From an uncultured virus (IMG/VR IMGVR_UViG_3300025098_000001) (taxonomy: Duplodnaviria; Heunggongvirae; Uroviricota; Caudoviricetes), in IMG/VR virus record IMGVR_UViG_3300025098_000001: a DNA stretch of 64,000 bases; one strand, given 5' to 3'. Of the stretch, positions 8,071 through 33,780 are shown piece by piece. Under the pieces are notes generated by a model that ran no database searches, was not told where the DNA came from, and was given only the letters and a program-made list of their open reading frames with translations. Within the stretch, counting starts at the first letter, position 1. Every line of letters starts with the position of its first letter. The position numbers were made by a program, and so were the translations under genes.

Positions 8071-8074
8071 TTAA

Positions 8075-8646: not shown

Positions 8647-8691
8647 AGGTATTCACCTTGTTAATAACTACGCAAGGGTTGGTCTTTAAAC

Positions 8692-12341: not shown

Positions 12342-12544
12342 TCAAACGCCTCCTCAATTCTTCTTTGAATAACTTGAACAACTTCTTGCTCGATAACCTG
12401 TTCCATTATCTCGTCGCTCATTTTCTCACCCAAAGTTCTTTCAGTGTAATCCTGTATATCCTCATTTTGCTGAACAACAGTTTCTAAAATACTTTCCATA
12501 TCAAGTTGAACTAAACGCATTTTTTCTAAAATTTTACGGAACAT
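12338..12544 (-). CDS. Small helical hypothetical protein (68 aa)
   Basis: ATG at 12544 (MFRKILEKM) overlapping the upstream stop; preferred over the longer track start. Confidence 0.6.
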   Translation of the reverse strand: MFRKILEKMRLVQLDMESILETVVQQNEDIQDYTERTLGEKMSDEIMEQVIEQEVVQVIQRRIEEAFE

Positions 12545-13808
12545 CTTTACGACCCCGCTTTCCTCTTTGAGGTTTAATGTTTGACATAGAAGTTTTTTTT
12601 CTTTTTCTTTCAGCAAGTAAATCTTTTAATTTATCTGCCTTTTCTTTTGCCTTAGCACCTAATTTAGCCGCTTCTTCTAAATTTAAATTCCTCGATTCTT
12701 GTTCTTCAGGTGGTTTTTCTTTAGGAACCAACATCGCCCTTTCTCTATCCCAGTAAGAATCAGGATTAGCGGCTTCTAATTGACGAATATTTTCTTCTTC
12801 TGTAAGTTCGCCTTCTTCTTTTTCCCTTAAATCATATTCTCTTTTTTCTTCAACATAAAATTCTTCTACTAAGTCTATAACTCGTTCTCTTAATTGGGCT
12901 TCAGTTTGTATTACCTCATCGTCAAATATTTGAACATTACCTTCAATTGTGGTAAAGTAATAGTCTCCTTCTTCTTCTACAAAATTAATAAAGATATATC
13001 TTCTATCTGTTTGTAAAGACCTAAAAGAAACATTGAGAGTAGCCTTATTATCTACAAAATCCCCATCAACTATTCTTACTGATGATTTACGACCATAAAT
13101 ATCTCTTGGGACAATGGTATTAAGACCTGCTCTTAAATCCCTTTTAAATGTCTCCCAATCTTTAAGTTTTAATCTGTCTCCTCTTCGAGTGCGAATTTTC
13201 TCAATGTCTATATCATCAGAATTTAGATTTCTTTTAACCATTGTGTCTATATTTCTTATATATTGTTGTGGAAAATATCCTCTATTTATAAAAGAACGCA
13301 TAAGCCTTTTATGTTTATACGATTTTGGTGCAGGTCTATCCGGTTCTAAAATTTTATATTCTTTTATATATTCCTCATAAATACTTTCTATTACATCATC
13401 TATGTCATATACATCTTGGTAGCCCGTTTTTTCCACATGTTCAAGAAGCAATCTTCTAAAAATGTCTCCTTTAACCTTTGGCTTTGATTTTTCAAGATTA
13501 TTTCGTTGGTCTAATTTAATCATTTTTTTACTTTGTTTACCGTCTATTATTCTTTCATATCCTTCAGGAAAATATTTACCAAAAAACCTTGTTAATTTTC
13601 TTTTCATAATTCTTAAATTCGATAACCCGGCATCCGGAAATTGTGCTTTATGCCTTGTTCTATATTCACTATATATACTATCTACTACATCTTCAATTAT
13701 ATATTCATTTTGATAATCCGTTTCTTCTACATATTCAAGAAGTAAATTTCTAATAATACTTCCTTTAAGTTTGGCTGTCTGCGTAGATTTGAGAATATCC
13801 GACCACAT
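12534..13808 (-). CDS. Hypothetical protein with WxxILK leader and tandem internal domain duplication
   Basis: GGTGA SD then ATG 13808 (MWSDILKS); two similar units (KGSIIRNLLLEYVE..YFP / KGDIFRRLLLEHVE..YFP). Confidence 0.75.
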   Translation of the reverse strand: MWSDILKSTQTAKLKGSIIRNLLLEYVEETDYQNEYIIEDVVDSIYSEYRTRHKAQFPDAGLSNLRIMKRKLTRFFGKYFPEGYERIIDGKQSKKMIKLDQRNNLEKSKPKVKGDIFRRLLLEHVEKTGYQDVYDIDDVIESIYEEYIKEYKILEPDRPAPKSYKHKRLMRSFINRGYFPQQYIRNIDTMVKRNLNSDDIDIEKIRTRRGDRLKLKDWETFKRDLRAGLNTIVPRDIYGRKSSVRIVDGDFVDNKATLNVSFRSLQTDRRYIFINFVEEEGDYYFTTIEGNVQIFDDEVIQTEAQLRERVIDLVEEFYVEEKREYDLREKEEGELTEEENIRQLEAANPDSYWDRERAMLVPKEKPPEEQESRNLNLEEAAKLGAKAKEKADKLKDLLAERKRKKTSMSNIKPQRGKRGRKDVP

Positions 13809-13813
13809 TTTAA

Positions 13814-14089
13814 TCACCAATCCTTACAAGCCATACAACGGGCTGAATAATCCGAACCTGTGCAAGTGCTACATTTATGCCTTGCGTTAAAGGATTTTTT
13901 ACGCTTAGTATTTCCACTCTTTCCCGTGACCTTAACTCCTGCTTGACCCCAATGAACTCTCTTGTATTTTCCCTTTTTACCTGCGGGAACACAAGCCATC
14001 CATTTCTTGCCTTTTCGATTAGAAGATGTTTTGCCTGTTCTTTTAGTGCATCTACCAGACTTTCTTTTTAGAATATCTTCCCATCCCAT
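13814..14089 (-). CDS. Small basic Cys/His protein with WxxILK leader
   Basis: GGAGTGA SD, ATG 14089 (MGWEDILK); VHWGQ..RKKSFNARHKC..ARCMACKDW module. Confidence 0.75.
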   Translation of the reverse strand: MGWEDILKRKSGRCTKRTGKTSSNRKGKKWMACVPAGKKGKYKRVHWGQAGVKVTGKSGNTKRKKSFNARHKCSTCTGSDYSARCMACKDW

Positions 14090-14093
14090 AAAA

Positions 14094-14951
14094 TCACTCC
14101 GTTCCCTCGTATAAATAATAGTCACCAAACTCGTGTTCTGCCAACCAATTATCATGGTCTATTGCATCACTAATAACATACTTTAATGTTTTTTCTTTAA
14201 ACCCGTCTATTTTATTTCCTGCATCAATAAAGTTTTGCATTCCTGCCGCACCGCCTTCATCTTTCAATACCTTTTTAATAAATTTAACATAAGCATTATA
14301 TTGTGCGTTTCTTACAGCAGGAACTTTAGCCTTAGTGACTTCTTTACCATCGCAACCACAACCGCAACCAGAATCCATATCTTCTATATCATCATCATCT
14401 TCAATAACTATGTTTGTCTTAATACCGGGAAATCTTCTATTAAACTCTTTTATATCTTCTTTGTTTTTTGGCTGTTTTCCTTCAGGAGTTTGCATTAAAA
14501 TATGTTTAATTTTGTCCGAAAGAGTAGGGTTATTTTCAAACTCGTTATCGGCTACAACTTCTTCTATGTCTTCTTCCATTTGCGAACTTATTTTATTAGG
14601 TTTTACTTTACCGTAATCCTTTGCTTTGATAATTTCATATGTGGTTACTTTAGATACTCTACCAAGTTCTCCAAGTTTTCCATCTCTAACTAATTTATTA
14701 ATTACAGGTTTGATTTGACCTGTAAATTTATGACTAAGAAATTGAGCAAAACCCGCTAATCTTCCGTCTTCAACCTCGGACCACTCATTTCTCATGTATT
14801 GAATAATTTTTTTTCTATCTCCTTCAATATCACGAATAGTCACTCTTTCCAATGGGCTATTTTCTATATAATTACTAATACCCTCATATACTTTTTGTCT
14901 GTATATAGGGTAATTTACTCTACTACTTCCCTTTAATATTTCTTCCCACAT
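14094..14951 (-). CDS. Multi-domain hypothetical protein with WxxILK leader
   Basis: ATG 14951 (MWEEILKG); GCGCGC segment; IIKA and VTKA linkers. Confidence 0.7.
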   Translation of the reverse strand: MWEEILKGSSRVNYPIYRQKVYEGISNYIENSPLERVTIRDIEGDRKKIIQYMRNEWSEVEDGRLAGFAQFLSHKFTGQIKPVINKLVRDGKLGELGRVSKVTTYEIIKAKDYGKVKPNKISSQMEEDIEEVVADNEFENNPTLSDKIKHILMQTPEGKQPKNKEDIKEFNRRFPGIKTNIVIEDDDDIEDMDSGCGCGCDGKEVTKAKVPAVRNAQYNAYVKFIKKVLKDEGGAAGMQNFIDAGNKIDGFKEKTLKYVISDAIDHDNWLAEHEFGDYYLYEGTE

Positions 14952-14952
14952 A

Positions 14953-16041
14953 TCAATCACTATCCAAATAATAAACCACTCGGCGTTTCATGCGTAAAAT
15001 TTTGTCCACATCTGCTTTATAGGAATCGTATTTACTTTTTAAATCTATACCATTACTAGAATCATTTCCTAATAATACATAAGAATCATCACTTGTAATA
15101 AGTTCACAAGCAGTAAGTTTTGTAGCCGCATCTTCAATAATGGCAGGAATGCGAGTCTGCCCACATGTATATGTGATTTTTACTGAATGCTTATGGTGTG
15201 TAGGAAACTCGCTACGGAAAAAAATATCTCCCGTATCTTTCATATCCCACCATGCCGCATTACGGTCATAGTCTTCTTTATTTGTAAATTGAGTGCGAGA
15301 ATTAGTTCCCCCATTAACTGCGAGTGTGCAATTAGAACCATCCGAACCGGGGAGTAAAGAAACAATTGTAATCGTTTCGTCTTCTTCTAAATTAGCATAA
15401 AAGAAATCGGATATATTATATGTGTCGGTTCCATCTTGTAAAACCTTTTTACCAGTTCCACCTGTAAAAGGTGCGGTAATAGTAGGCACTTGTTCATTGA
15501 TAAGATAGCAAATTTCCTGTGCAGTAGTTCTTTGCCCGTAAGCCTTGTTAAACTTATCATTATCGGTTATTCCGGAACTGTCCGGAGATAGGGTCCAAGT
15601 TAATCCCCCACCTGTAAGAACGATAGATGTAAGATTGGTGTAATCATCTATTGTTAATGTTGCTACTACGGATGCTATGTCTGTATATGTCGAGCCATCC
15701 CAAATAGCAATTCGTAAAATTTTACGAGTATTTTCGTGATGAAGTCTAATCTTCCCGATGTAGTCTTCGTAAAAATAATTATAATTATTACTTCTCATAA
15801 AGTCGTGAAATTCGTTTTCCACTAAATTATCTCTCCATGAAGCATTTGTAAATTCGTCAATAAAATCTTCGGACCTTCTCATCAAATCTCCGACTTCGGA
15901 TAAAGTAGGAGAAGTAGAGGAGGAAAAATCTGCAATACCTAATAGTGCGGCTACCTTTACAGCAGTTGTATAAGCACCGTTACCTAATGTGTAATTAACT
16001 ACATTTAGACCGGAATCCGAAGGTGTCATCATCTTAACCAT
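14953..16041 (-). CDS. Head-tail adaptor/connector protein with insertion
   Basis: N-terminal YTT..VAALL..MRRSEDFID and C-terminal ITYTCG..IPAIIEDAATKL pattern of head-tail adaptors; between capsid and tail genes. Confidence 0.65.
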   Translation of the reverse strand: MVKMMTPSDSGLNVVNYTLGNGAYTTAVKVAALLGIADFSSSTSPTLSEVGDLMRRSEDFIDEFTNASWRDNLVENEFHDFMRSNNYNYFYEDYIGKIRLHHENTRKILRIAIWDGSTYTDIASVVATLTIDDYTNLTSIVLTGGGLTWTLSPDSSGITDNDKFNKAYGQRTTAQEICYLINEQVPTITAPFTGGTGKKVLQDGTDTYNISDFFYANLEEDETITIVSLLPGSDGSNCTLAVNGGTNSRTQFTNKEDYDRNAAWWDMKDTGDIFFRSEFPTHHKHSVKITYTCGQTRIPAIIEDAATKLTACELITSDDSYVLLGNDSSNGIDLKSKYDSYKADVDKILRMKRRVVYYLDSD

Positions 16042-19991: not shown

Positions 19992-21197
19992 TCATTGAAG
20001 GTCAATTAACTTGCCTTGTCCACGCACATAAGTACACATTGTTTCACCGATAGTTCGGTAAAGTCCACGGTGTCCTAATTTTCCATGACCGAAAACTTCC
20101 TTAGTGTTCATACCTGCTTCAAAGTATTCAGTAGGCTTCATAGTACACATAAACAAATGGTCGGTGTCAAGAAGTAGAATATCGGAAAGACCGCTTCCAC
20201 CTGTTGGCATATCCTTACAAGGAATGATAGGAATGTCGTGATAGGTAGCAACCTTAAATCCGACTTCTCTTCCCTTAACTCCCTTAATACCACTGTGAGA
20301 AGGAACAACTTCTGTTCGACCCATGAATCTTTCTTGGGCTTGGAGAAGTTCTCCTAATGCTTGAATGGTGTCGTATCCAGTAAGGAAAACCTTTGGTTGT
20401 CCACCACGAGCCATCAAATTTCGCAAAGCAGTATTAAGCATATTAACAGTCAAGTTACGAGCAGTTCCCGAATTTGAATCAACATATGCTTCAAGGAATT
20501 CTGTTCCCGACGAAGCACGAGTTTGTCCAAAAATAGTCAATGGGTTTGCAAGATTACTTACTCCATTCAATTCTGCGTAAGTTGAAATAATTTGGTAAAG
20601 TGAAGTCAAAGAATTACCCTCAGTAGTATAACCCGAAGCAGTAAGTCCTGATGAAGTTAGGTCAGTAAGAACCATCTTGTTCATTGCTTCTGCGTGTGAA
20701 ATACCAACTTCTTCTCGGTAAGTAGACATAATATCTCCAATACCGTCATCCATTCCGCCAAGAAGTTGAGCAACTTCCGAAAGTTCGAAAGTGTGTGCAA
20801 TAGTCTTAGGCGAAAGGTGAAGATTAGCAAAGGTTGGGTTAATTGCAGAAATACCTGAAATACTTGCGTTTTCTGCTGTGCCCCCAAGGTCGTCTAAATC
20901 CGAAACCACGAAAGTATCAAGATTACCACCAAGAGAACGACCCTTCAAAACTCTCCAACCACTTGACTTCCACGGCTTCTTAGGAAGCATTGAAAGTGCG
21001 TTAATTTCTCGGTTAATCATAGACCAAACTTTTTGTCCATAAACCAAGTTATACAAAGTAGCATCTCCACCGGAAAGTGCGCCATCGTGAGCCACATGAA
21101 TACCCGATGTGACTGCTTTCATTAAGTTATCACTTCCACCGGATAGTCCGTAAGTCGCTCGCTCTAAGTCTTCAATTGTTCTAAAATATCCTGTCAT
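19992..21197 (-). CDS. Major capsid protein (HK97 fold)
   Basis: Follows protease-scaffold; GAGGTG SD, ATG 21197 (MTGYFRTIEDLERATYG); YGQKVW..IN, LPKKPW..SGWRV, TYHDIPII, QGKLIDL resemble halo/magrovirus MCPs. Confidence 0.9.
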   Translation of the reverse strand: MTGYFRTIEDLERATYGLSGGSDNLMKAVTSGIHVAHDGALSGGDATLYNLVYGQKVWSMINREINALSMLPKKPWKSSGWRVLKGRSLGGNLDTFVVSDLDDLGGTAENASISGISAINPTFANLHLSPKTIAHTFELSEVAQLLGGMDDGIGDIMSTYREEVGISHAEAMNKMVLTDLTSSGLTASGYTTEGNSLTSLYQIISTYAELNGVSNLANPLTIFGQTRASSGTEFLEAYVDSNSGTARNLTVNMLNTALRNLMARGGQPKVFLTGYDTIQALGELLQAQERFMGRTEVVPSHSGIKGVKGREVGFKVATYHDIPIIPCKDMPTGGSGLSDILLLDTDHLFMCTMKPTEYFEAGMNTKEVFGHGKLGHRGLYRTIGETMCTYVRGQGKLIDLQ

Positions 21198-21198
21198 T

Positions 21199-22386
21199 TT
21201 AAGCACCTCTGTTGTATTTGTCCATTAGTTCGTGAACTTCATTCCAAGACATTTCGGAAATGTTGGAGAAGTCCTCGCTTAGTGTAGCCGAAGCATTTTG
21301 GACTTCTGCGGCCTTAGCGATTGTATTGTTCTCAAGAGATTTCTTGAGTTGTGAAAATTCTTCCTTAAGTGAAAGAACTGCGTCTGCGGCATTAAACTTT
21401 GACTTAGCAATTGCATCAGCCTCAACCTTAAGTTCGTTATTATATCGTGCTTCAAATTCAGCCTTAATAACTTCATAAGCACGAGCCTCTTCTCTTTCAG
21501 CCTTAAATTGTTCGTAAGCCTTTTCGATGTTTGCGTTTGAAAGGTCAAGAGTTTCAATATCCTCGGACTTGTGTTCTACAAATTCTCGGAAATCTTCGGA
21601 CTTCATTTCTTCATCCTTACTACCCATTTTATCTTTCATACCCATTTTTTCTTCATCGTCTTCATCATCTGCTTTCATTTCTTCGTCTTTATAGTCTCCC
21701 ATTTCGACGGACTCCTCTCCTTCATCCATCATCTCAAGTTCTTCCTCTTGGTCAAGAGTGTCCATTGTATTCTTGAGAACCGTGGATTCACGGAGTTCAG
21801 CCATTACTTCATTAAACTCGTTAAGAGCCTTTTCTATTTCTGTGTTCATTTTCTTATCCTCCTTTATTAGGTTAAATTTTGCTTCAGGGTTAATGCCCTC
21901 TTCGCATATGGTGATTTCATGCAATTCAAGTTTATCAATTTCTTTATAACTACCGGTATCGGAGTCATATCTATTTGTCTTGTTTATTGCCTGTCCACCT
22001 ATTGAAAAAGAGCGAAGGTTGCCTTTTCTTATATCTCGTGCAACCTCTTTAGCCTTTTCAATATCATTTCTTAATTTTATCACTACAAAAAACCCTGTAT
22101 CATCAACGCCTGTTTTTAGGACTTTACCATTGGAATCTGTATATTGGTCTACTACTTCACCGACTTGAACATTAGAATGAGTAATCATAACATTTCTATA
22201 TCGGTCTTGTTTCATAAACTTGTCAGCCGCTTCACGAATTGCACCCAAAGTAATCTTATCATTTTGCTTATCTACTACATCAACTGATGCGTAGCCCGCA
22301 ATAACGCATTCGTTATTTGCTTTAAGAATTACGAGTTCTCCGCCACTATTTGGTTCATTACCAAACATAGGTGTTTTCAACTGCAT
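21199..22386 (-). CDS. Prohead protease (HK97-type) fused to acidic/coiled-coil scaffold
   Basis: IAGYASVDVVDKQND, MITHSN, RSFSIGG, LHEITIC..GINPEA motifs; C-terminal E/D/K-rich helical domain. Confidence 0.9.
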   Translation of the reverse strand: MQLKTPMFGNEPNSGGELVILKANNECVIAGYASVDVVDKQNDKITLGAIREAADKFMKQDRYRNVMITHSNVQVGEVVDQYTDSNGKVLKTGVDDTGFFVVIKLRNDIEKAKEVARDIRKGNLRSFSIGGQAINKTNRYDSDTGSYKEIDKLELHEITICEEGINPEAKFNLIKEDKKMNTEIEKALNEFNEVMAELRESTVLKNTMDTLDQEEELEMMDEGEESVEMGDYKDEEMKADDEDDEEKMGMKDKMGSKDEEMKSEDFREFVEHKSEDIETLDLSNANIEKAYEQFKAEREEARAYEVIKAEFEARYNNELKVEADAIAKSKFNAADAVLSLKEEFSQLKKSLENNTIAKAAEVQNASATLSEDFSNISEMSWNEVHELMDKYNRGA

Positions 22387-22409
22387 AATAGGTCCTGTAT
22401 TCTATGAAC

Positions 22410-22419
22410 TATATAAAAG
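22410..22419 (-). promoter_or_regulatory. TATA box for protease/capsid operon (probably leaderless)
   Basis: Minus-strand CTTTTATATA about 24-33 nt upstream of ATG 22386; no SD. Confidence 0.45.
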
Positions 22420-22422
22420 TAT

Positions 22423-24519
22423 TTAATCCGAGGAATCATCTTCATATATGTTTATTAGGCCGGAGTCACTTGATTTTGGTGCAGGTTTTGTTTCATAACC
22501 AGTCCAAGCAAGCCACATCTCTTTACCTTTAACAGGTAAATATCTACAATGTAGTTTTGTTTTTACCTCTTCACCGTTTAAAATATACTCATGGTAGCCT
22601 TTTCTTTGTGCGCCTAAGACCATCGGGCCTCTTTCGAGAAGGTTGTCTGTTTGAGGCTTCGTTATTTGCTTACAAGGGTATTTTCCAGATTCTCCCAAAA
22701 AGTCGTAAATCTGTTCATCTCCACTTACTTTAATCTCCCAAGCCATTTTTCTACCTTGATAAAGTATAATAAAATGTAGATAACCACTATCAGTAATCCA
22801 AAGTTCAAATTCTGCATTCCTTGTTTCTGCTTTATTTAATACATCATCATCGTGTGTAAATTTTCCAGATGAATATAAAATACCATATGTGTCTCCGGCT
22901 TCCATTAGGCGATTTTTCATTTTACCTTCCGCCTTTGCGTCATTACCAAAAAGTCTATTTATCATTTTAGTATCATGTTTAACTGCTCTACTAAAAATAT
23001 CATTGGCTGACAAAGTTCCATAGTCTATAAGTAATTGCTTAACAAATACAAAAAATCTACCATTGTCTTTTCCGTAAGCATCTTTTAGTTCCTGCTTCCA
23101 AAAATCTATATCTAAGGAAGCATTTTTAGACATTAAATTATTGTCCTTAAAGCCGTGAAAAACAAACCCATTTAAATCGAGTTCTGTATTTAATTTAGCA
23201 ACACCGTGTATTCCATCTGTAATTTCATAAGACTTCGTAAGGGCTTCAATCTTGTAGTCGCCAAGACTTTTCTTTCCACCGGTTGTTAAAAATTCAAGAG
23301 TAATTAGTTTGTCCGGTAATTTTACTTCAGGTATTTCGTGAAATTTAGAATTAAATAATGAAAAACCTTTTTTAGGATTACCCATAATTTCGTCAGCCAT
23401 AACACGAATAATAGTTCCTACCTCAACATCTTTTTTAGTATTGGTAGTCTTACCAACATTCATGTAATAGTCTCCACTAATTTCTACAGCCTTAATAGAA
23501 TCTTCCTCAACTGGACCAATGCCCATAGTATAACCAAATGTTCCATTTTTATTTTCCTTTTTATCTAAAACCATAACATCTAAATCAACAAATTTTTTCC
23601 ACTTAATCCACTTAGGGTTTTTCTTCTTTCCTATAACATAGGAAGACTTAGCATCCTTGATTACGACTCCTTCGGATGCCGGATTTTTCATAATATCCAT
23701 AGCATATTCTTCGATTTCCGACAAAGAATCTGCATCTCTTGTATTATTTTTATTAGGGAATAAAACATACTCGTCGGCATTTGCTGAAAAGTTTTTCATA
23801 AGAATCATCAAGCGTTCTTCTAATTTATCCGAAGTGACCGCACTATCTTCAAAATACATAATATCAAAAACATGTGCTTTAATATCTGCCTCTTCTGTAA
23901 TTTTTTTATTTATATGTGCAAGTGTATCGGCACGAACTAATGCTTCACCGTCATTATACATTACGGCTTCTGCATCTAATATACAATTAGGAAAAACCCG
24001 GTCTTCTAATACCTTAACACATTGAGGCATTTTGTCTGTAATGTCTCTCGCATTAAATGTGTATATTTTAACTTTGTTATCAAATTTATGAATCTGTATT
24101 CGTAGGCCATCGTATTTTTCTTGAACAACATATTCCGAAGTAAGACCTTTAATTTCCTTCATATCGTCTATCTCAAATATACGATACATAGGTTTATTTG
24201 GCTCAACAAACTTTTCCGGTCTATCTTGTTTAACTAAAATAGCAGGTGAATTTTTATTATTAAAGTAGTTATATATGTTACCCGCCTTTTCATTATTAAC
24301 TGAAAAAGAATCATCCGAAAATAATACACTATCATCTATATTAGGAAACTGTTCCTTTAGTTTAGGGTCTTTTAATAATTGTCTAAGTTCTACAACTAAT
24401 TTTTGCCAATCCTTTTCGTATGCCTTTGGGTTATCTCTCGCACTTAAAAAAGTAGAGCGAACCATATTTCTTAGCGAAGAAACATTTTTTACCACGCTAT
24501 CGAATTGAGTAAAAAACAT
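22423..24519 (-). CDS. lig: ATP-dependent DNA ligase with N- and C-terminal extensions
   Basis: Motif I QEKYDGLR, III ILDAE, IIIa HVFDIM, IV EGVVIK, V WIKWK, then OB domain; likely ATG 24519. Confidence 0.9.
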   Translation of the reverse strand: MFFTQFDSVVKNVSSLRNMVRSTFLSARDNPKAYEKDWQKLVVELRQLLKDPKLKEQFPNIDDSVLFSDDSFSVNNEKAGNIYNYFNNKNSPAILVKQDRPEKFVEPNKPMYRIFEIDDMKEIKGLTSEYVVQEKYDGLRIQIHKFDNKVKIYTFNARDITDKMPQCVKVLEDRVFPNCILDAEAVMYNDGEALVRADTLAHINKKITEEADIKAHVFDIMYFEDSAVTSDKLEERLMILMKNFSANADEYVLFPNKNNTRDADSLSEIEEYAMDIMKNPASEGVVIKDAKSSYVIGKKKNPKWIKWKKFVDLDVMVLDKKENKNGTFGYTMGIGPVEEDSIKAVEISGDYYMNVGKTTNTKKDVEVGTIIRVMADEIMGNPKKGFSLFNSKFHEIPEVKLPDKLITLEFLTTGGKKSLGDYKIEALTKSYEITDGIHGVAKLNTELDLNGFVFHGFKDNNLMSKNASLDIDFWKQELKDAYGKDNGRFFVFVKQLLIDYGTLSANDIFSRAVKHDTKMINRLFGNDAKAEGKMKNRLMEAGDTYGILYSSGKFTHDDDVLNKAETRNAEFELWITDSGYLHFIILYQGRKMAWEIKVSGDEQIYDFLGESGKYPCKQITKPQTDNLLERGPMVLGAQRKGYHEYILNGEEVKTKLHCRYLPVKGKEMWLAWTGYETKPAPKSSDSGLINIYEDDSSD

Positions 24520-24524
24520 TACCC

Positions 24525-24950
24525 TCACACCATTTCATCACTTGGAGTCAAAGCAGCATCTTCATTAATTGTCAATGTGTGGCGAAGACGCTTAAGTTTT
24601 CCAAGTGCTGTTTCCAATGCGGCTTCAACATCTTTATCTTGTGAATCTTCTGCATTACCTTCGGATTCAATGCGTATCTCTTCTTGGTCCGGTTCTGCTT
24701 TGTATGTCATATTTTCCGGCATTAACTTACTTTCGTAATTTCTTTTAATCATTGTCTGTTCCTTCGTAATAGGTTTAGCCGCCAAGCGTTCAACATTGAC
24801 TTGCTTTCCTGCTTTTTCATTCTTTTGAGCATCTGCTGGTTCATAACCTAAAGCATTAGTCAATAAAACTGTAAGTTCTGTCAATTGTGTTAAAGCATCT
24901 ACTCCTCTAATATCTGCGTCGTCGGCTATCATTTCTTCTTTTTTACTCAT
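24525..24950 (-). CDS. Acidic hypothetical head-cluster protein
   Basis: 141-aa ORF with coupled start/stop overlaps. Confidence 0.65.
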   Translation of the reverse strand: MSKKEEMIADDADIRGVDALTQLTELTVLLTNALGYEPADAQKNEKAGKQVNVERLAAKPITKEQTMIKRNYESKLMPENMTYKAEPDQEEIRIESEGNAEDSQDKDVEAALETALGKLKRLRHTLTINEDAALTPSDEMV

Positions 24951-25183
24951 ATTGTTCCCTCCAAATTTTTAACAAGTGAATCTAAATCACTCCAATCCAT
25001 TTTTGAAATCACATCACCATTAGGCATACCTGATTGAGTTTTTGCACTCGGTCTTGGACTTCGGACAAATCCGGCCTTCATAATTGCCGTGTCCGAATCT
25101 GCTAATTTTTTTTCTAAATCCTTAACCTTGTCGGAAAGGGCCTTTAATATTTCTAAAATTTCAACTGTTGTTTCTTCTTCCAT
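24947..25183 (-). CDS. Small coiled-coil protein with scaffold-like C-terminus
   Basis: Coiled coil followed by ISKMDWSDLDSLVK, resembling the scaffold end ISEMSWNEVHELMD. Confidence 0.65.
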   Translation of the reverse strand: MEEETTVEILEILKALSDKVKDLEKKLADSDTAIMKAGFVRSPRPSAKTQSGMPNGDVISKMDWSDLDSLVKNLEGTI

Positions 25184-25185: not shown

Positions 25186-27675
25186 TTATTCCTCCTCATC
25201 ATATACCATGTCGTATAGTTTTTTGTATAGATTTTCATATTTCTTTCTTAGTGATGCGGCTGTCTTCACCATTTGTAGATTTTTAACTCCCAATTTCTCC
25301 AAGAGTTCTGCCTCTTCATCTTCCGCTAAACCGTCAATTATATTTATAACTTTGCCCAATCGGAGGTAATCTTCACCAAAATATTCTGTTGGATGGGCGT
25401 TTTGAAGCATGGTTTTAACCTTACGCCTTTCTTTAGTAGAAAGGCCCGATAGGTCTGCCTTTGAAACTGAACCCGATTTTAAATACAAACCTGCAAATGG
25501 TTCTCCACCCTGCTTAACATTTTCGAGTATTTTTTCCCTTAGTTCGGCTTGAGTATATAGTTCAAACTTTTTATTATTTTCTTCACCTACCATATGACCC
25601 AACGCTAAGGTTCTTTGTCTACCCGTATATGGTTCATAGTCGGTTTTACCTTTATTCTTCAAGGCAATTTCTACAAGTTCGTCTGTCCATTCTTGGAGAT
25701 TTTCCTCCTTTTCTTCAGGCGGCATTTCTTCGGCTTCGGCTCTTGTCTGTTCAAGTTTCTTTTTATTTTCTTCAATAGTCTTAGCAGAAGGGGGGTTATT
25801 AACCCTATATGTTTCCCTAATATCCTCTAATACCTCTTTTTGATTTTCTGTAAGTTCTCGACTATAATTTCCTCTCATAGGTTCATAATCTTTAGGATAA
25901 TCTAATTTAGTTCCAACTGGAACTTTATACTTAGATTCTTTAGGGTAAAGGTTTGGTTTTCTTTGTCTTGGTTTATTTTTTGGACCCGGTTTAGGTTGTC
26001 TTCGAGGTCCTTGAGAATCAGGTCCTTGAGTTCTACCTTCACCTGTTTTCTTTCTACCCGTAACACCTAATTTTGTCGCTAAATTACTTTTAGGTTTTTT
26101 CTGTAATTGGGCCGAAGGAACTTCTGCGAGAAAATATCTACCAAATTGCTTACTGCCCACTTGTTGTTGAAGTATTTTATTTGCTTTGTTCATTTGGTCT
26201 TGAGTAAGAAAACCCGACATTTGCTTTCCTCTATGTAGGAATGTGGCTACATTTTGTAGTAGTTTCATATTTTTTCTTTTTTCAGTGTTAATAAATTGTC
26301 TAAACTTTCGCTGTTCAGTATTTGAATCTAAATATCTTCCTGTGACTACGACTTCTCTTGAAAAAAGGTTTGCCAAATCTGAATTAATTAAATATTGAAT
26401 TGCATAAGCAATTGAATTATTACCACCCTTATCTGCTATTACATTATCAATACCTTCTACGAGATTTTTAATAAATAACCCTTCATCCTTAACATCTGGA
26501 ACTGGTTCATAATTTCTACCCAACCATTCGGAAATCTCACTAAACTTTCCTGTAAGGTCTTCATTTACGGGAAGAATTAGTCTGTTTAAATCTTTACTAT
26601 ATCTTGTTTTGTTATCATTCACGACTTGTAATGAAACTCTATTACCCCTTGAAGACCTATTAAATTCTATGGTCTTATTTTGCACCATCATTATTAATTT
26701 CTGTAAATATCTATCCTCGTCGGATGAACTATCCAATGATGTAGAATCTTCTATTAAAGCCATAATATCTGTAAAATCTCCGGGGTTATTTTCTCGGTAT
26801 TCCTCTATGAGAGGTGAAGAACCACTGTCTACAAATTTATCTAATGAGATAATAAAGTCATTAAAATCAGCATTTGAAATTGGTTGTAGAATAGTTCTTA
26901 TCTGTGATAGGGTTGCTTTTATAGGAGGATTTTGCATCTCTGCTTCAGTTTCTATTCTTCTCGATTCTTCGGCATTTTCAACCATTTGTGATTGTAATTC
27001 TTCTACTTCCATACGAAGATTTGCAAGCATTCTTTTATCAGCAGGAGTTCTTTTATCTTCAATTATATTTTCATAATAATTTAACCTATCTTTTGCTTCT
27101 TTATAATCTCGCTTAAGTTTTGAAGGGGTGGATGTAGGTTCCTTTCTTCTACCATAAGGTGCATCATAAGGTTTATCATCGGGTATAACCCTGTTAACAT
27201 TTTCTTTATCATAGTCAACAATATTTTCTTTATAATGTAAAGCCGCCGCTTCTACTGTAATAGGTAGTTCTGGATTAATTATTTTTTTACCGCTATCTGA
27301 ACCCATTCCCGGTCTTGTAATTGTTTTACCTTTTCCTGATTCTATAACATATATGGGGTAGAATTCATTTCTTCCATACCCGTCATCAATAATTTCTCCA
27401 GCATCATTAATTTGAATACTTTTTTTATTTCCAAAAGCAACAAAAGGATTTGATTTCTTATATGACTGTAAAGTTTCTTTATCCTGTTTAATTTTTTGTA
27501 GCAATTCTTGTCTTTCCTTTCTTTTATCCGTATTAACGAGTCGCTGTATTTTATCTTCATTTACAGAAATAACATCTTCTAAAGCAGAAATTTTTAATGC
27601 CTGTCTAATCTTAATCTCAACTTCACTAAGCGTAGCATTAGGCTTAATATTTCTCTTTAGAATTGTTTCCCACAT
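25186..27675 (-). CDS. Large hypothetical protein with WxxILK leader
   Basis: Starts MWETILKR; 829 aa, charged. Confidence 0.75.
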   Translation of the reverse strand: MWETILKRNIKPNATLSEVEIKIRQALKISALEDVISVNEDKIQRLVNTDKRKERQELLQKIKQDKETLQSYKKSNPFVAFGNKKSIQINDAGEIIDDGYGRNEFYPIYVIESGKGKTITRPGMGSDSGKKIINPELPITVEAAALHYKENIVDYDKENVNRVIPDDKPYDAPYGRRKEPTSTPSKLKRDYKEAKDRLNYYENIIEDKRTPADKRMLANLRMEVEELQSQMVENAEESRRIETEAEMQNPPIKATLSQIRTILQPISNADFNDFIISLDKFVDSGSSPLIEEYRENNPGDFTDIMALIEDSTSLDSSSDEDRYLQKLIMMVQNKTIEFNRSSRGNRVSLQVVNDNKTRYSKDLNRLILPVNEDLTGKFSEISEWLGRNYEPVPDVKDEGLFIKNLVEGIDNVIADKGGNNSIAYAIQYLINSDLANLFSREVVVTGRYLDSNTEQRKFRQFINTEKRKNMKLLQNVATFLHRGKQMSGFLTQDQMNKANKILQQQVGSKQFGRYFLAEVPSAQLQKKPKSNLATKLGVTGRKKTGEGRTQGPDSQGPRRQPKPGPKNKPRQRKPNLYPKESKYKVPVGTKLDYPKDYEPMRGNYSRELTENQKEVLEDIRETYRVNNPPSAKTIEENKKKLEQTRAEAEEMPPEEKEENLQEWTDELVEIALKNKGKTDYEPYTGRQRTLALGHMVGEENNKKFELYTQAELREKILENVKQGGEPFAGLYLKSGSVSKADLSGLSTKERRKVKTMLQNAHPTEYFGEDYLRLGKVINIIDGLAEDEEAELLEKLGVKNLQMVKTAASLRKKYENLYKKLYDMVYDEEE

Positions 27676-27905: not shown

Positions 27906-30740
27906 TTAATTTCTACTCATATTTCTTCTTGCTATATTTTTAAGTTGTATTGCTTCTGGATTCTTTTTAAGATATTCTTTTATTTCTTCTCTTACTGTTT
28001 CCCTTAATACTTTCCTTGCACCAATCGCGTCGGACATTTTAACATTTGAGATAAAATATTTATATAATTCTATTAAAAAATACATCGGGTATTTTTCATC
28101 TGTCGTAGAATTGGAAATCATTTCTTCAATTATTTTCTCGAAGCGACCTGTAACGCCCTCGTTTGCCCATAAAGTTTCTATCTTATTCTTAGTATTCTCG
28201 TCTAATCTTGGGTCTAAATCGGAAACATGGTCTCCTCCAAACATATACCAATTAAAAGGAAATGGTTCTGCCTCTCTTAGGCTCACACCCATTCTCATTC
28301 CCTCATCACCTGAAGAAAAAAATCCACCACCTTCCAATGGATTAACAAATACACAAGCGGCTTTTGAGCGTTCCGAATTTCTAAATACATGTCCTTCCAA
28401 TCTTTCTTTTACTGCTCTACGAAAAATACCTCCCCAAACTGTGGGTGTAATAATAGGGGTTGAATTCATAGTTATTTCGGGTAAACTGGCCCTTGTTTGT
28501 CTCATGGAACCTACCTTTTGTGTGATGAATACATCTTGATTTTCCTCAAGCCATTTATTAAATACTTCCATTATTTTTTTATTTAGTAAACTTAAAAGCA
28601 TTTTATCGTAAATATGAGGAACGGAGGTATAACATATATCAATGGTTCTATCACCTTGACCTTCTATATCATGGTAGAAGGTATCAAAAGGAAATACAAC
28701 CAATATGCCGTGTGTATTTTCAAAGAATAAATGTCCAGATTTCTGCCTTGTCACTCTATTAAACCTTAAAGGTTCATAGTGTAAAGTAAGCGGGTGGTCT
28801 ATCACACCTTGTCTTTTTAAATTTGGTTCTGATAAAAAATATAAAGATTTTTCACTAGGACTGGCAGGTTTAGATAGACCTACCCTTTCTTTATCTCCGA
28901 TTAATAAATCTTTAGGTTTAGAAATAAGATTATTAATTAAATTAGTTAAATCCATCCTAATATCCCAATCTTGAAAATTAATACTAAATTGTGTAGCATC
29001 ATCAACTAAAGACGGTCTAATTACTTTTATTTCCTGATTATTAATATCTATAAATATAAAATATTGGTATAAATTTCTTAAAATTGTATCAGTTACTTCA
29101 AAATCTGGTTCATTCTTGAGTTCAAAATAAGACTGTAAATATCTTATCATATCGTGCATATTCGTCGCATCGACTCCCTTAATAGATACTAAATACATGT
29201 CTGTCAATTGTTCTGGAACTGAAAAGCCTGAATATTTTAAAAGATTTCTAAAAAAATCACTCACATTACCTTGCCCAGTATTAGGTATATAATTGATAGC
29301 ATAATCTTCACTCGCATATACATCGTCTGCTTTTTCTTCCATAAAATGTTTTATAAATAAAGAATAGTCCTTTAAGACAGAAAAATCAGAAAATGGGTCA
29401 TCAGCCCTGTTAATATATCGAATAAGTTTTTTCTCATAATCTGTTAAAGGGGGAAATTGTTTAAGCATCTTTGTAGTATCACTTGAAGTAGTAGAGGGCG
29501 TGTATTTACGCTGTCCTGAAGAAGATATATAGCCCCCTAATGCCCTATCAACATAGGCATAAAGAATATTATAAAATAATTCTCTCACTCTAATTAAATT
29601 TTCTTGATTACCTCTAAAAAATTTTCTTGATAAGGGTTTATAACTTCCCCATATTTCCTGATACTGTTTGATAGAAGTTTCTATTGCGTTACCTAATTTC
29701 ATGTCTATGCGAGAATTTGAAAGTTGTAAAATATTATTTAATTTTTTTAATTCTGTTTTTATACTATCTTGTTCATCACTATCCATTCTTTTGCGATTAG
29801 GCATAAGTTGAATATTATTAATAGTGCTACTCGAAGGTTTAAAGAAATTTTTGTCAACGGATGAATGTATAAAGTATGTTTTCGCATCTGTAAAATAATA
29901 CCGAATGTCATCAATTTTTTCAACTCGACGATTTACATACCCTTTAACCTTTTTTAATAAAGATGATTGAGCGTCGGGGTCAACCAATTTATCAAAATTT
30001 GGAACTCTAAAATTTTCACTTAATTTAAAAATTGGTGTAAGACTTATAGAGCCAAAGCCAAAGCCACCCGGAGTTATATTAAAATTTTTTGATAACTGGT
30101 TTTTAGTATAACCAGTATTAATTAATAGCGTAGTAGTAATCCTTTCTTCTTGTATGTCAATAAGCAAAGTAGGGTTTAACCCTGCATCTTTATATTCATT
30201 ACAATAGTTTGCTGTTTCCCTAATTTTAGGAATACTGTCCATATCAAAACCACCTAAATTAAGTCTTGATGTTATATATTTCAAAGTGTATCTGGGGGTT
30301 TCTATATTGGAAATTTTTCCTCTTGATTGAATTGCCGTAATGACATTACCTGTTGATTCTACCCCTGTTGACAAAACTGATGTAGGTTTATCTAAACCAG
30401 TGAACACAACTATTGAATTAGATTCAATTAATTTAGAATATTCGGGGCGCTTAAATTCTTCGATTAGCATTTCTTGAATACTTTCAGATTGAAACAAAAT
30501 AAAATTTGTCACAATAGACATAGAAGAATTAGATGTAAGCACCAATATAGGTTTACTTGAGGTTGTTGGAGTATTAACTATTTCATTATAAATTTCTACT
30601 TCTATGTCTGTTTCCGCCAATTCTTCTTTAGTGTCAATAAGAATTAACTTTGAACCTCTTAACGCAAATCTATATATTTTACTAAACATGCCAAATAAGG
30701 TTAAAACTTCTTGTTCGCCCATAAGCCCCTTGTAAATCAT
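27906..30740 (-). CDS. Large hypothetical protein downstream of portal
   Basis: 944-aa ORF with ATGA overlap to portal; no family recognised. Confidence 0.7.
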   Translation of the reverse strand: MIYKGLMGEQEVLTLFGMFSKIYRFALRGSKLILIDTKEELAETDIEVEIYNEIVNTPTTSSKPILVLTSNSSMSIVTNFILFQSESIQEMLIEEFKRPEYSKLIESNSIVVFTGLDKPTSVLSTGVESTGNVITAIQSRGKISNIETPRYTLKYITSRLNLGGFDMDSIPKIRETANYCNEYKDAGLNPTLLIDIQEERITTTLLINTGYTKNQLSKNFNITPGGFGFGSISLTPIFKLSENFRVPNFDKLVDPDAQSSLLKKVKGYVNRRVEKIDDIRYYFTDAKTYFIHSSVDKNFFKPSSSTINNIQLMPNRKRMDSDEQDSIKTELKKLNNILQLSNSRIDMKLGNAIETSIKQYQEIWGSYKPLSRKFFRGNQENLIRVRELFYNILYAYVDRALGGYISSSGQRKYTPSTTSSDTTKMLKQFPPLTDYEKKLIRYINRADDPFSDFSVLKDYSLFIKHFMEEKADDVYASEDYAINYIPNTGQGNVSDFFRNLLKYSGFSVPEQLTDMYLVSIKGVDATNMHDMIRYLQSYFELKNEPDFEVTDTILRNLYQYFIFIDINNQEIKVIRPSLVDDATQFSINFQDWDIRMDLTNLINNLISKPKDLLIGDKERVGLSKPASPSEKSLYFLSEPNLKRQGVIDHPLTLHYEPLRFNRVTRQKSGHLFFENTHGILVVFPFDTFYHDIEGQGDRTIDICYTSVPHIYDKMLLSLLNKKIMEVFNKWLEENQDVFITQKVGSMRQTRASLPEITMNSTPIITPTVWGGIFRRAVKERLEGHVFRNSERSKAACVFVNPLEGGGFFSSGDEGMRMGVSLREAEPFPFNWYMFGGDHVSDLDPRLDENTKNKIETLWANEGVTGRFEKIIEEMISNSTTDEKYPMYFLIELYKYFISNVKMSDAIGARKVLRETVREEIKEYLKKNPEAIQLKNIARRNMSRN

Positions 30741-32395
30741 CCTACTCTCCTCTCCGTTCTTTTATCTACATTTTTATTTCCAGCATCTCCGGGCAATCCT
30801 GTGTATCTTTTATCCGGTGAAGGGGGCATTCTTTTCTTTGGGGTATAGTCAGCCTTATCTGCTACTTCCCCCGCTACTTGTCCTTTTGTTTGGCCGCTTA
30901 ATAAGGCTTGTTCTTGAAGTTGTCCTAATTGTGATGAATCTATATTAGTTCCCGCATACTTATCTGTTTCAATAGGTTTATCTTTCTTATCAACATCTAC
31001 TTCTGTAAGGCCTTCTGCTGGGTATTTCTTAAATATAAAATCACCATCTTCATTCATATCAACTTCAAAACCAAGATTTTTCATTTGAATCGCAAGTGCG
31101 ACTTCCATTTCTCTTCTACGAAGAACTGCAATTTCATCCTCTTCTTCCGAGCGAAGAAGTTGAACTCTCCAGTCAGTAATACCAAATTGGTCCATTACAA
31201 ACGGGAATAGATATTTATTATAAACCCCTTGAGCCATTTCAACTGCACGATTAGTGACAAGAATCTGCATTCCTTCCGAATTAAGACCACCGGAGGCAGT
31301 ATTATCTGCCATAAAAATATTACTCACACCATAGAAGGCCGAGATTCTTGTTCTCAAGTCTTCCTTTACAGCAGTATAATCCATCTCTTTTAATGAGTTC
31401 ATAAAAGGAATCCATTCAACAGAACCACGAGAACCTCCCTCGGATTCAATACCCATGATAGGGATATAGTGAGGGTCTTGTTCCAACTTTTCTTTAACAC
31501 CTTTCCAATACTTTACCAATGACTCCATGTTATTTGTTTGCACAGCAAGAATACCTTTTGGTGTTCTCATTTTTTGATATGAAGTGCTAATGTAAGACTC
31601 CATGGCCTGAAGAGTAAAAATATAATTAAACAATGTAATTACTGGGGGGTGTCCGTATAATCTCGTAGGTGAATATTTACTAAAATGAACTACCTCTCCT
31701 GTAATATAATGTTGTTCTGCTTGAGCAGTTTTATTTGTAAATTCGATGGGGTGTAGATTACTACCACACATACCACACTTTTCATACCTTTCTTCGGAAA
31801 TAAAATCTCTATGCGTGACGCAAGTATATCGCTGGTGTCCTCTATCACCATCTTCGTCAACTTCTATAAACATTGTAGTTGGGTCTCCTCTATAAATCTC
31901 GTTAATTTTAGACATGGCTATTTCACCATTTTCTTCTAAGAAGTAGTCCTTGACTAAGATTAAAAAAGCATCATCCATAACATTGAGGTCTGTCTCTAAT
32001 TCCTTCAAAATATCAATGAACAACTGGTGTGAATCATTTACATGATTCTTAAAAAAATTCTCAGCATAGACCTTTTGATTATAATTAGGCGTTCTTAAAT
32101 CTCTTGACCTACAATTCATACATTCATCTACATCTTTTTGATGTTCATAGCCGCAGGAATTACACTTCTTATCAAATGCCTTTTTCCATTCATAACCTCG
32201 ACGAAAAACCTCATTTTTAAGTTGAACCAAACAAGTGCGAACCACTGTTGAGTTTTTAGCGGTATCATATAAATATCTACCGGCGTAATGTTGAGGGTAT
32301 CTACGCTCTTGAATACCTAAGTTATATACTTCTTTTTCCGTAGGAATTGGTGTTCTTCTTCGTATCAATGTTCTAAATCTGTCTCTTAGTCCCAT
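30737..32395 (-). CDS. Portal protein with Zn-finger-like insertions
   Basis: VVRTCL, DDAFLIL, EVVHFSKYSP..LYGHPP, TPKGIL, ISAFYGVSNIF portal motifs; CNSC/CMNC and CVTH/CGMC inserts. Confidence 0.85.
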   Translation of the reverse strand: MGLRDRFRTLIRRRTPIPTEKEVYNLGIQERRYPQHYAGRYLYDTAKNSTVVRTCLVQLKNEVFRRGYEWKKAFDKKCNSCGYEHQKDVDECMNCRSRDLRTPNYNQKVYAENFFKNHVNDSHQLFIDILKELETDLNVMDDAFLILVKDYFLEENGEIAMSKINEIYRGDPTTMFIEVDEDGDRGHQRYTCVTHRDFISEERYEKCGMCGSNLHPIEFTNKTAQAEQHYITGEVVHFSKYSPTRLYGHPPVITLFNYIFTLQAMESYISTSYQKMRTPKGILAVQTNNMESLVKYWKGVKEKLEQDPHYIPIMGIESEGGSRGSVEWIPFMNSLKEMDYTAVKEDLRTRISAFYGVSNIFMADNTASGGLNSEGMQILVTNRAVEMAQGVYNKYLFPFVMDQFGITDWRVQLLRSEEEDEIAVLRRREMEVALAIQMKNLGFEVDMNEDGDFIFKKYPAEGLTEVDVDKKDKPIETDKYAGTNIDSSQLGQLQEQALLSGQTKGQVAGEVADKADYTPKKRMPPSPDKRYTGLPGDAGNKNVDKRTERRVG

Positions 32396-32397: not shown

Positions 32398-33780
32398 TTA
32401 TTCCTCCTTAACAATCGAATCTAATTCATTCATCAAATCCCATTTACAGTTATTTTTATATTTTGATATATTATCTTCTTGTATATCATATTTTTCAAAC
32501 TCAACAGCACCTTGATTGCGAGCATCCTTCCAATTTTCCCACTTAATAAGTTTAAAAATTTCAGTCATTCTACTTTTAGCCCAAGGCTCTTTCTTGTAAA
32601 ACTTCTTAATTTTAATTGCCTCTTGTAAAAGTCTACCCTGTTCTTGTTTCATGCGAAGGTGGGGTAAGCACTTTTCTAATAATTTTGTAATATCATTTTG
32701 ACTATAAAAATTTAGCCTATGTTGACTTCTACTATTCTCTCCCACCTTTTGGTCCAAGTGTAGGCGGCCAATTTTTAATTCCTTTTCCATTTCTTGAAAG
32801 AAGGCTCTTCCTCTATCTCCCGTGGCAATCATGCCAATACGGGGAGAATATGAAGAGTCCATAGTAATATAACCATCGGAGTCAATAAACCCTGCTACAT
32901 ACCCATAAAGGTCTTTTTTAATCGTATCACTAAGAATGTAGTAATCTCCATTAACATTTGTAGCGTTAATTCTTCTCAACATTTTAGAAATTGTCTGCGG
33001 TGTAGTAGAGCGATGATAACTTTTTGGCAACATTGAGTGAATACTATTACTTGAAATTCCGGGATTATTACAAATGGTTTTTGTGATAATATTATCCAAA
33101 ACATCTTGTCTTGATTTTCTAATAGACTGATGAGAAATTTCTTTGATTATAGAGCGTATGTTTTTCTTGCTTTCCTTGAACACCTTAGTGTAGTCAGTAT
33201 ATTCTTTACCGTAGTCTAATTCATTCTTAAAAATATTAGCCTCCCACATTTTTGTTAAATTGTCTAAAATTTGCGCTCTCATATCTCCATCCTTGATATG
33301 TTCTAATTTTCTTAGTGTGACTATATCAGGTGTAAGTAACTTGAGTGCAGGTTTATACGGGGAAACCCAATAGATAGAATCCATACACTTATTCAAATGT
33401 TCTCCGTATGCGTTAATTAAATGGTCTATTGTCTTACTCATTTTCATTCTTGAGTCGCCTTTTAGTTGTCTACGCATATTTCTTAAATCCTTAACAATAT
33501 CCGGTATAGGTTTGTTATCAATTAGTGGTTCTTCAGGGAAAGAAGATAACATATTTCTTGCATCGGTAAGATTAACTTGGTATATTTTAGAAATATCTTT
33601 GATAACCTCAGTCTCATCAATAGACTGATACGGTAGCCATTCGCTAAGTTTAATATCATCCACTAATTGTTTCTTGTTTTCTTTTACTTTATTCTGCGCT
33701 TCGTCAAGTTCCTGCAACTTTCTACGAAGTTCGTCTGTATTAATTTCATCTTCCTTACATATTAATTCCATATATTCCAC
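32398..33780 (-). CDS. LAGLIDADG endonuclease-domain protein with long helical/wHTH N-terminus
   Basis: YVAGFIDSDGYI motif followed by a typical LAGLIDADG body (LPHLRMKQEQ). Confidence 0.8.
   Translation of the reverse strand: MEYMELICKEDEINTDELRRKLQELDEAQNKVKENKKQLVDDIKLSEWLPYQSIDETEVIKDISKIYQVNLTDARNMLSSFPEEPLIDNKPIPDIVKDLRNMRRQLKGDSRMKMSKTIDHLINAYGEHLNKCMDSIYWVSPYKPALKLLTPDIVTLRKLEHIKDGDMRAQILDNLTKMWEANIFKNELDYGKEYTDYTKVFKESKKNIRSIIKEISHQSIRKSRQDVLDNIITKTICNNPGISSNSIHSMLPKSYHRSTTPQTISKMLRRINATNVNGDYYILSDTIKKDLYGYVAGFIDSDGYITMDSSYSPRIGMIATGDRGRAFFQEMEKELKIGRLHLDQKVGENSRSQHRLNFYSQNDITKLLEKCLPHLRMKQEQGRLLQEAIKIKKFYKKEPWAKSRMTEIFKLIKWENWKDARNQGAVEFEKYDIQEDNISKYKNNCKWDLMNELDSIVKEE

Follow-up and report, generated by a model that had tools for sequence, protein, structure and literature searches.

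A lysine-linker-tryptophan-helix module at the C-termini of a protease-scaffold fusion and a small paralogous protein of a magrovirus-type tailed virus

The locus described here raises the question whether several proteins encoded in and around the head gene module of an uncultured tailed virus carry one and the same docking peptide. In the 64,000-nucleotide stretch of IMG/VR record IMGVR_UViG_3300025098_000001 (hereafter the window, meaning this whole stretch of DNA), a 395-amino-acid (aa) prohead protease with a scaffold-like tail and a 78-aa protein of a separate gene upstream both end in a short helix of the form M-x-W-x-[DE], and a similar tryptophan (Trp) peptide stands at the N-terminus of a series of other open reading frames (ORFs), which we call cargo leaders. 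The profile comparisons show the 78-aa protein to be a paralogue of the scaffold tail, each with a copy of one conserved lysine (Lys)-linker-Trp-helix module, in two clades of viruses, while the cargo leaders (W-x-D-I-L-K) are probably a signal separate from the tail helix.

A preliminary description of the stretch had reported how the two proteins end, and both ends were borne out by translation and by the DNA. The C-terminus of the 395-aa ORF reads ..EDFSNISEMSWNEVHELMDKYNRGA and that of the 78-aa ORF reads ..GDVISKMDWSDLDSLVKNLEGTI, with the ATG of M-S-W at 21252-21250 in the former and the ATG of M-D-W at 25000-24998 in the latter. The two motifs, M-S-W-N-E-V-H-E-L-M and M-D-W-S-D-L-D-S-L-V, are identical at 3 of 10 positions. 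When the 78-aa family was compared with the scaffold tail by hhalign, a probability of 93% and an E-value of 3.5e-7 were obtained over 59 columns, with the whole small protein aligned to the last ~60 residues of the protease-scaffold, A-I-M-K-A-G placed on T-I-A-K-A, and M-D-W-S-D-L placed on M-S-W-N-E-V. BLAST searches in the related loci, a small database, gave protease-scaffold C-termini as the next hits of the 78-aa protein after its own family (E 0.001-0.009). A 10-residue profile of the tail, built from relatives only with the rows of the window excluded and scanned over the 81 window genes (19,599 positions), scored 30.7 bits for the scaffold tail and 26.3 bits for the 78-aa protein, the next best site reaching 8.6 bits. 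As judged from these sequence comparisons, the likeness of the two C-termini is far beyond chance.

The same description had expected the Trp motif to be conserved in scaffold homologues, which agrees with what was found in its own clade, in a sister clade and among more distant representatives. For the window clade, 80 related loci were surveyed, whose protease-scaffolds are 55-100% identical to that of the window; 72 ORFs with a stop codon were matched by BLAST, one of which is the front half of a split gene, leaving 71 tails. The Trp is kept in 71 of these 71, with the consensus [ML]-[STN]-W-x-[EQ]-[VIAL]-[HNE]-x-[LMF]. Among 20 full-length homologues with 30-89% identity to the window protein, the only invariant residues beyond the protease domain are K358 (in I-A-K) and W381. 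A search of 1.84 billion representatives returned 980 relatives of the protease-scaffold, and the best 150 of these were inspected: in 15, with identities as low as 31%, [ML]-x-W-x-[DEQ]-[ILVA] falls within the 40 C-terminal residues, a further five have W-x-[DEQ]-[ILV] but differ at position -2, and in two a Tyr replaces the Trp. The best 150 also include other tail types, and many of the rows are fragments or other architectures. One relative with a different tail type, P0176 (..PLEELYKIPFSKI..), was traced to 6 loci of a smaller virus; the W-x-x-I-L-K leader was not found in these 6 loci, so that they offer no comparison of leader and tail covariation. Scans with P0129 and with the distant Trp-tailed protease P0142 found no loci, and a word-index search with the protease-scaffold gave close relatives only (best 120 of 3,533). 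Another protease-scaffold, P0125, which is 44% identical to that of the window, ends in ..G-D-E-I-A-K-M-D-W-N-D-I-N-A-L-V-E-R-L, an end nearer to that of the 78-aa protein than to the tail of the window, which hints at exchange or a recent common origin.

For the sister clade, 80 loci were recruited with an alignment of distant tails (A3). The representative protease-scaffold, P0126, is 38% identical to that of the window, and the capsid proteins are 39-43% identical. The tail ..P-S-T-x-[DE]-[LM]-x-x-M-[SDT]-W-x-[DE]-V-H-x-L-A was present in 77 of the 80 loci; contig ends truncate the remaining three. A small protein of 106-128 aa is encoded ~6-7 kb upstream of the protease-scaffold. It has the build of the 78-aa protein: a helix at the N-terminus is followed by L-L-R-K-A-G-F-V, by a linker containing [IL]-[LIV]-K, and finally by ..H-x-M-[SDE]-W-x-[DE]-I-H-x-[LM]-A. 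By hhalign, this protein matched the tail of its own clade with 95.6% probability and an E-value of 1.1e-8, from the Lys site through the Trp helix, and matched the 78-aa family with 96.7% and 3.6e-10. Because tail and small paralogue recur in the sister clade, their pairing must be old and maintained.

The larger of the two proteins is a prohead protease by several measures. Residues 23-177 match Pfam Peptidase_S78 (E 8.8e-12, 45.9 bits against a cut-off of 21), which places the protein in that family, and the PHROG head maturation protease matches it with an E-value of 3.1e-18. As in a head protease gene of the S78 type, the capsid gene adjoins, its ATG following the protease stop after 2 nt. 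In the 20 full-length homologues H70, S128 and K175 are invariant and K22 is nearly so; H70 and S128 are presumably the catalytic pair of the Peptidase_S78 family. No solved structure was found for the protein by sequence. In the AlphaFold2 (AF2) model, with a mean predicted local distance difference test (pLDDT) score of 63.9, the protease fold takes up residues 28-175 and is followed by an acidic, disordered stretch (202-262), two long helices (284-329 and 333-352) and a linker of low confidence (354-369), within which K358 lies; of the end helices at 365-373 and 381-392, the second is opened by W381. For the 78-aa protein (mean pLDDT 75), a long helix at 2-36 ending at K36, a linker, and helices at 56-61 and 64-75 were predicted. 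In both tails, a linker, a short helix, the Trp and a terminal helix are thus predicted in this order, with the Lys at or just after the end of a long helix, which supports a common module.

The 78-aa ORF is a genuine gene, closely packed between its neighbours. GGAGGA stands a few bases 5' of its ATG, within the end of the preceding 829-aa ORF, and its stop codon shares ATGA with the start codon of the following 141-aa ORF. Its synteny is conserved across the related loci, where 47 hits represent 34 distinct sequences, each with M-[DE]-W. In 21 sequences of the family K14, L16, E24, K36, G38, V40, P45, M62, W64 and V71 are invariant, and the gaps in the family are in frame. The Atlas clusters nearest to it by features are unnamed and hold 300, 60 and 50 viral proteins. 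An ORF that is short and matches no known family could be non-functional, with its likeness to the tail a remnant of partial duplication; against the ribosome-binding-like sequence, the overlap with its neighbour, the ten invariant residues, the in-frame gaps, the populated Atlas clusters and a position kept in two clades whose capsid proteins are ~40% identical, this is very improbable and already close to refuted.

As to what the module does, we lean, if only slightly, towards the reading that it is a procapsid anchor and that the 78-aa protein is a second small scaffold or scaffold helper. The module consists, in order, of a conserved hydrophobic-x-Lys site, a flexible linker of ~20 residues, a short helix, the invariant Trp, and a terminal amphipathic helix of the form M-x-W-x-[DE]-[ILV]-[HDN]-x-[LM]; one copy ends the protease-scaffold and the other the small coiled-coil protein, from its separate gene ~2.5 kb upstream. 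The Trp end-piece would hold both proteins against the inside of the procapsid, the capsid protein being the most likely contact, with the 78-aa protein using the same docking site as the protease-scaffold, and the protease would later cut at the conserved Lys and free the bodies from their anchors. The anchor role is proposed because scaffold C-termini in P22 and herpesviruses serve as an example: their C-terminal helices bind coat protein, and a comparable C-terminal role is known for 80alpha, lambda C/Nu3 and the HK97 protease. The preliminary description had taken the 78-aa protein for an auxiliary scaffold, and this is supported by the tail homology in two clades, by the location of the gene among the head genes, and by the predicted long helix, linker and two short helices. 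Like known scaffolding proteins it is small, largely helical and encoded in the head module between portal and protease.

Several points weigh against the anchor reading. That the Trp end-piece binds the capsid protein is suggested by analogy, the label of scaffold for the 78-aa protein comes from tail homology and analogy, and 78 residues are short for a scaffold. The protein has no Pfam or PHROG match and a best PDB sequence E-value of 0.31 (nothing meaningful), and it belongs to no scaffold family described in Pfam, PHROGs or PDB sequences. Cleavage at the Lys sites is proposed from conservation, and K175 of the protease ends a predicted beta-strand (170-175) and may have been conserved for the fold. 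The coiled-coil composition of both proteins could inflate the profile scores, to which the specific aligned invariants (I-x-K and M-x-W) and the repeat in the second clade are a counter. A complex prediction of the capsid protein (A4) with the 78-aa protein (A1), run without controls, gave ipSAE values of 0.02 and 0.04 (mark 0.32) and speaks neither for nor against binding. The end-piece might also bind another partner, such as the portal, the protease domain or its own other copy, for example in recruiting the small protein or in driving oligomers. Paralogues with the same end-piece could pair together, within the module the small gene is closer to the portal side than the capsid gene is, and in four of five sister-clade genomes a 380-435-aa protein encoded between terminase and portal ends in ..[VA]-[MK]-[SG]-W-x-E-x-L, hinting at more users of the motif. 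Since the precedents put the contact with the capsid protein at the C-terminus of the scaffold or protease, the Trp of the window's 460-aa counterpart is lost in two of five window-clade genomes examined, and the data favour no single alternative partner, we regard this explanation as rather unlikely. The 460-aa ORF itself, which has a weak hit to HNH endonuclease, ends in ..CKWDLMNELDSIVKEE (..C-K-W-D-L-M-N-E-L-D-S-I-V-K-E-E), its sister homologues having ..T-V-M-S-W-A-E-G-L or similar in 4 of 5 genomes; as a third Trp-ended protein it was dropped on account of the same two losses.

The remaining part of the question concerns the leaders. The pattern W-x-x-[ILVMTG]-[ILVM]-K occurs at 19 minus-strand sites of the window; in 15 of them a Met precedes the Trp by 1-2 residues and at least 60 codons follow, while of 4 plus-strand sites 0 satisfy both; the same short N-terminal peptide is thus found on 15 window ORFs, as is the case for tags of the T4 type. 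On the gene strand of five near-complete window-clade genomes, W-x-x-I-L-K occurs 8-24 times per genome against 0-4 for a reversed-pattern control. In five sister-clade genomes it occurs 0-2 times each, which is background level, and A-W-x-[LIMF]-[LIMF]-K is found there 2-8 times per genome (controls 0-1) against one per window-clade genome; 20 distinct sister-clade leaders read M-x-x-[FLM]-[ED]-x-A-W-x-[ILV]-L-K. Each clade uses its own leader form almost exclusively. In the sister clade, one leader-bearing protein of 446 aa (record G003, ~95691, minus strand) also ends leader-like, with ..M-N-M-A-W-R-L-L-K-K-P before its stop. In the window, an internal ..M-K-K-A-W-G-I-L-K-R-G.. is seen at 35433 (minus strand), ~200 residues into a 290-aa ORF (35170-36042); A-W-[EG]-I-L-K occurs once each in 4 of 5 related genomes, the fifth, G010, having A-W-D-I-I-K, and the site may be where a nested leader-bearing protein starts, or else a conserved site within the ORF. 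The literature search did not find the W-x-D-I-L-K or DILK leader motif in print, the excerpts available from the magrovirus papers PMC5434244 and PMC11706807 contain no mention of a leader, an N-terminal tag or a scaffolding protein, and those from PMC5434244 contain no mention of tryptophan.

One reading has the leaders copy the Trp helix, so that tail, 78-aa protein and about 15 cargo proteins would dock in one pocket of the capsid protein. The core had been said to match MxWxDILK leaders, and literally it does: M-x-W-x-[DE]-[ILV] occurs 9 times in the window's 81 genes (7 N-terminal sites, the tail and the 78-aa protein) against 0.21 in shuffles, and W-x-[DE]-[ILV] occurs 18 times against 7.0 +/- 2.6. 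When 60 distinct leaders of the window's clade were combined into a profile, its best match fell on the Trp motif in each of the four alignments of tails and small proteins (A1, A2, A5 and A6), with scores of 14.7-18.4, which are matched by 0, 0, 0 and 1 of 150 column permutations, and it also picks the motif in two full-length alignments; in both signals the Trp is invariant and the third residue after it is aliphatic. The match is nevertheless weak: it covers six columns and beats permutations only with the start Met among them, a residue that would be present whatever the peptide does. When the Met columns were removed, 7, 18, 1 and 14 of 100 permutations reached the score, and the best match in the full-length alignments shifted to F-x-I-L-K, where the protease domain ends. 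With the 10-residue tail profile, leaders come no higher than ranks 5 (6.7 bits) and 17 (2.1 bits), the tail Trp is preceded by a short helix which the leaders lack, and the sister clade, with its tail motif unchanged, uses a leader form that does not match: the profile of its leaders misses the tail Trp motif, its best alignments lie elsewhere, and 10, 7, 27 and 3 of 100 permutations reach its score. By these tests the earlier proposal that the leaders mimic the scaffold helix is not supported, and we consider it unlikely. What both leader forms and the tails have in common is a Trp with nearby aliphatic residues and no more, and the I-L-K of the leaders is closer to [IL]-[LM]-K of the capsid N-terminus and protease than the whole leader is to the tail helix. 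A wider form of the same idea would make the Trp one address label for all proteins of the procapsid interior, namely the protease-scaffold, the small scaffold and 15-25 fast-changing cargo proteins, with one site on the capsid protein, release by a cut at the neighbouring Lys, and the clades as two dialects; we hold it to be doubtful.

With the anchor reading preferred and the leaders kept apart from it, the Lys sites can be considered together. The true start of the capsid gene is the ATG at 21197, which agrees with the conserved M-[ST]-G-Y-F.. N-terminus of its relatives. The N-terminal segment ends in ..[LI]-[LM]-K, with Ala or Ser as the next residue, and segment and K27 are invariant in 34 sequences from both clades; the segment resembles a short propeptide whose cut site would be of the leader I-L-K kind. 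The protease has L-V-I-L-K-A in its disordered N-terminus (22321-22386, minus strand) and F-N-L-I-K-E at the end of its fold (21859-21873, minus strand), the consensus among relatives being F-x-I-L-K at both, and these are possible self-processing sites. Motifs of two hydrophobic residues and a Lys thus recur at positions where head-protease cuts would be expected, in capsid protein, protease, tail, small protein and leaders, which is a pattern and not a result. If these Lys are cut sites, they would lie after the Trp in the N-terminal leaders and before it in the C-terminal tails, and a cut at either placement would part the Trp peptide from the body. Counterparts were also sought in the cultured halovirus HCTV-1, whose 665-aa protease gp111 (6680-8677) ends in ..VRKSWEEEDDPATDG.. 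(..V-R-K-S-W-E-E-E-D-D..) and whose capsid protein (8689-10071) has ..QLRKADGRIHTV.. (..Q-L-R-K-A-D-G-R-I-H-T-V..) ~80 residues from its start; these are faint echoes of the Trp and Lys sites and too weak to use.

Compared with known systems, the arrangement resembles in outline that of lambda gpC/Nu3 and herpesvirus UL26/UL26.5, in which a scaffold-tailed maturation protease is likewise accompanied, in the head module, by a smaller protein with the same docking end. As in such nested pairs, a C-terminal segment is common to the two proteins, homologous and not identical here, as the hhalign E-values in both clades indicate. In lambda and herpesviruses the short protein is nested in frame and the ends are identical, whereas here it comes from a separate, diverged gene, with two genes between it and the protease gene, and no sequence similarity to gpC/Nu3 or UL26/UL26.5 was seen in Pfam, PHROG and PDB sequence searches. 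In HK97, the C-terminal tail of the prohead protease gp4 takes the protease into the procapsid. The window protein is of the same family, Peptidase_S78, and also has a C-terminal segment beyond the catalytic fold, but its tail is ~220 residues long with an acidic linker and coiled coil and would serve as a scaffold, and its capsid protein has the N-terminal segment of ~27 residues in place of a delta domain. The leaders resemble the T4 capsid targeting sequence as short N-terminal peptides on unrelated head-adjacent proteins, with a probable protease site at the end of the peptide. The T4 tag is not known to copy the end of its scaffold, and for the leaders such a relation is likewise not supported. 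Given the similar [IL]-[LM]-K sites in capsid protein and protease, the leaders might be prohead-loading tags that are removed by the protease. The P22 scaffolding protein gp8 has a coat-binding helix-turn-helix at its C-terminus (bioRxiv 10.1101/2022.12.13.520362). It is alike in being a mostly helical small protein with its contact in the last two short helices, which would correspond to the two predicted at the end of the 78-aa protein; it has no detectable homology to the latter, whose motif is acidic with an invariant Trp and whose binding is proposed by analogy. For docking in the shell, encapsulin cargo-loading peptides offer a comparison (PMC8229669), as short terminal peptides that dock cargo inside an HK97-fold shell; they differ in being C-terminal, on enzymes and in a cellular compartment, with no protease and no sequence likeness to those of the window.

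The window belongs to a magrovirus-type tailed virus of marine archaea, as it combines a capsid protein like those of HCTV-1, HVTV-1 and HCTV-5 with a ligase within the structural module. The capsid protein is 27.6-29.7% identical to those of these haloarchaeal siphoviruses, and a DNA ligase in this place is a mark of magrovirus groups A and B, according to excerpts of PMC5434244. The closest genome record has 46% of sampled words in common with the window. The order of genes on the minus strand is terminase, 460-aa ORF, portal, 944-aa and 829-aa ORFs, 78-aa gene, 141-aa ORF, ligase, protease and capsid protein; the 141-aa ORF has no family match in Pfam or PHROG. The features are listed in Table 1.

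Table 1. Positions of the head-module genes, the Lys and Trp sites and the leader-bearing ORFs, in window coordinates except for the last row, which refers to a sister-clade record
Feature	Position	Strand	Basis
Prohead protease-scaffold fusion, 395 aa	21199-22386	-	Pfam, PHROG and AF2 model
S78 protease domain, residues 23-177	21856-22320	-	Pfam, AF2, invariant residues
Scaffold tail, last 110 residues (coiled coil, I-A-K358, linker, terminal Trp helices)	21202-21531	-	Alignment A2, AF2
Trp motif of scaffold tail, M-S-W-N-E-V-H-E-L-M, residues 379-388	21223-21252	-	DNA; W381 invariant
K358 codon (T-I-A-K-A), candidate protease cut site	21313-21315	-	Invariant; aligned to K36 of the 78-aa protein
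78-aa small scaffold-like protein, paralogue of scaffold tail	24947-25183	-	Synteny, hhalign, AF2
Trp motif of 78-aa protein, M-D-W-S-D-L-D-S-L-V, residues 62-71	24971-25000	-	DNA; M62, W64, V71 invariant
K36 codon (A-I-M-K-A-G), counterpart of K358, putative cut site	25076-25078	-	Invariant; end of helix 2-36
Major capsid protein	19992-21197	-	Pfam SU10_MCP, PHROG major head protein
Capsid N-terminal segment of ~27 residues, M-T-G-Y-F-R-T-I-E-D-L-E-R-A-T-Y-G...N-L-M-K	21117-21197	-	
ATP-dependent DNA ligase	22423-24528	-	Gene order
141-aa ORF between 78-aa gene and ligase	24525-24950	-	Gene order
829-aa leader-bearing protein (M-W-E-T-I-L-K), directly upstream of 78-aa gene	25186-27675	-	
Portal	30737-32395	-	Gene order
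460-aa ORF between terminase and portal, weak HNH endonuclease hit	32398-33780	-	PHROG
Terminase	33755-35170	-	Gene order
Four leader-bearing ORFs downstream of head genes (Trp at 12335, 13805, 14083, 14948)	11571-14960	-	
Ten further leader-bearing ORFs in array	40620-49958	-	Trp positions in next row
Trp of the array leaders	41039, 41805, 42644, 43504, 43706, 44062, 44691, 48597, 49264, 49952	-	
Sister-clade leader sites, record G003	14402, 93189, 94357, 94785, 95231, 96984, 98454		

In the surface ocean, magroviruses rank with the most abundant of the archaeal viruses, and no member has been cultured, as excerpts of PMC5434244 state. Up to now, their head assembly has been known from gene names alone. 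The copy relation between leader and tail is weakly supported by the sequences compared here and should not be taken as established, and as loading tags for HK97-fold shells, leader and tail are best treated as two signals. The picture gained for the assembly of these heads is that of a protease-scaffold fusion, a previously unnamed family of small partners, and two residues, a Lys and a Trp, that are fixed while the scaffold drifts.

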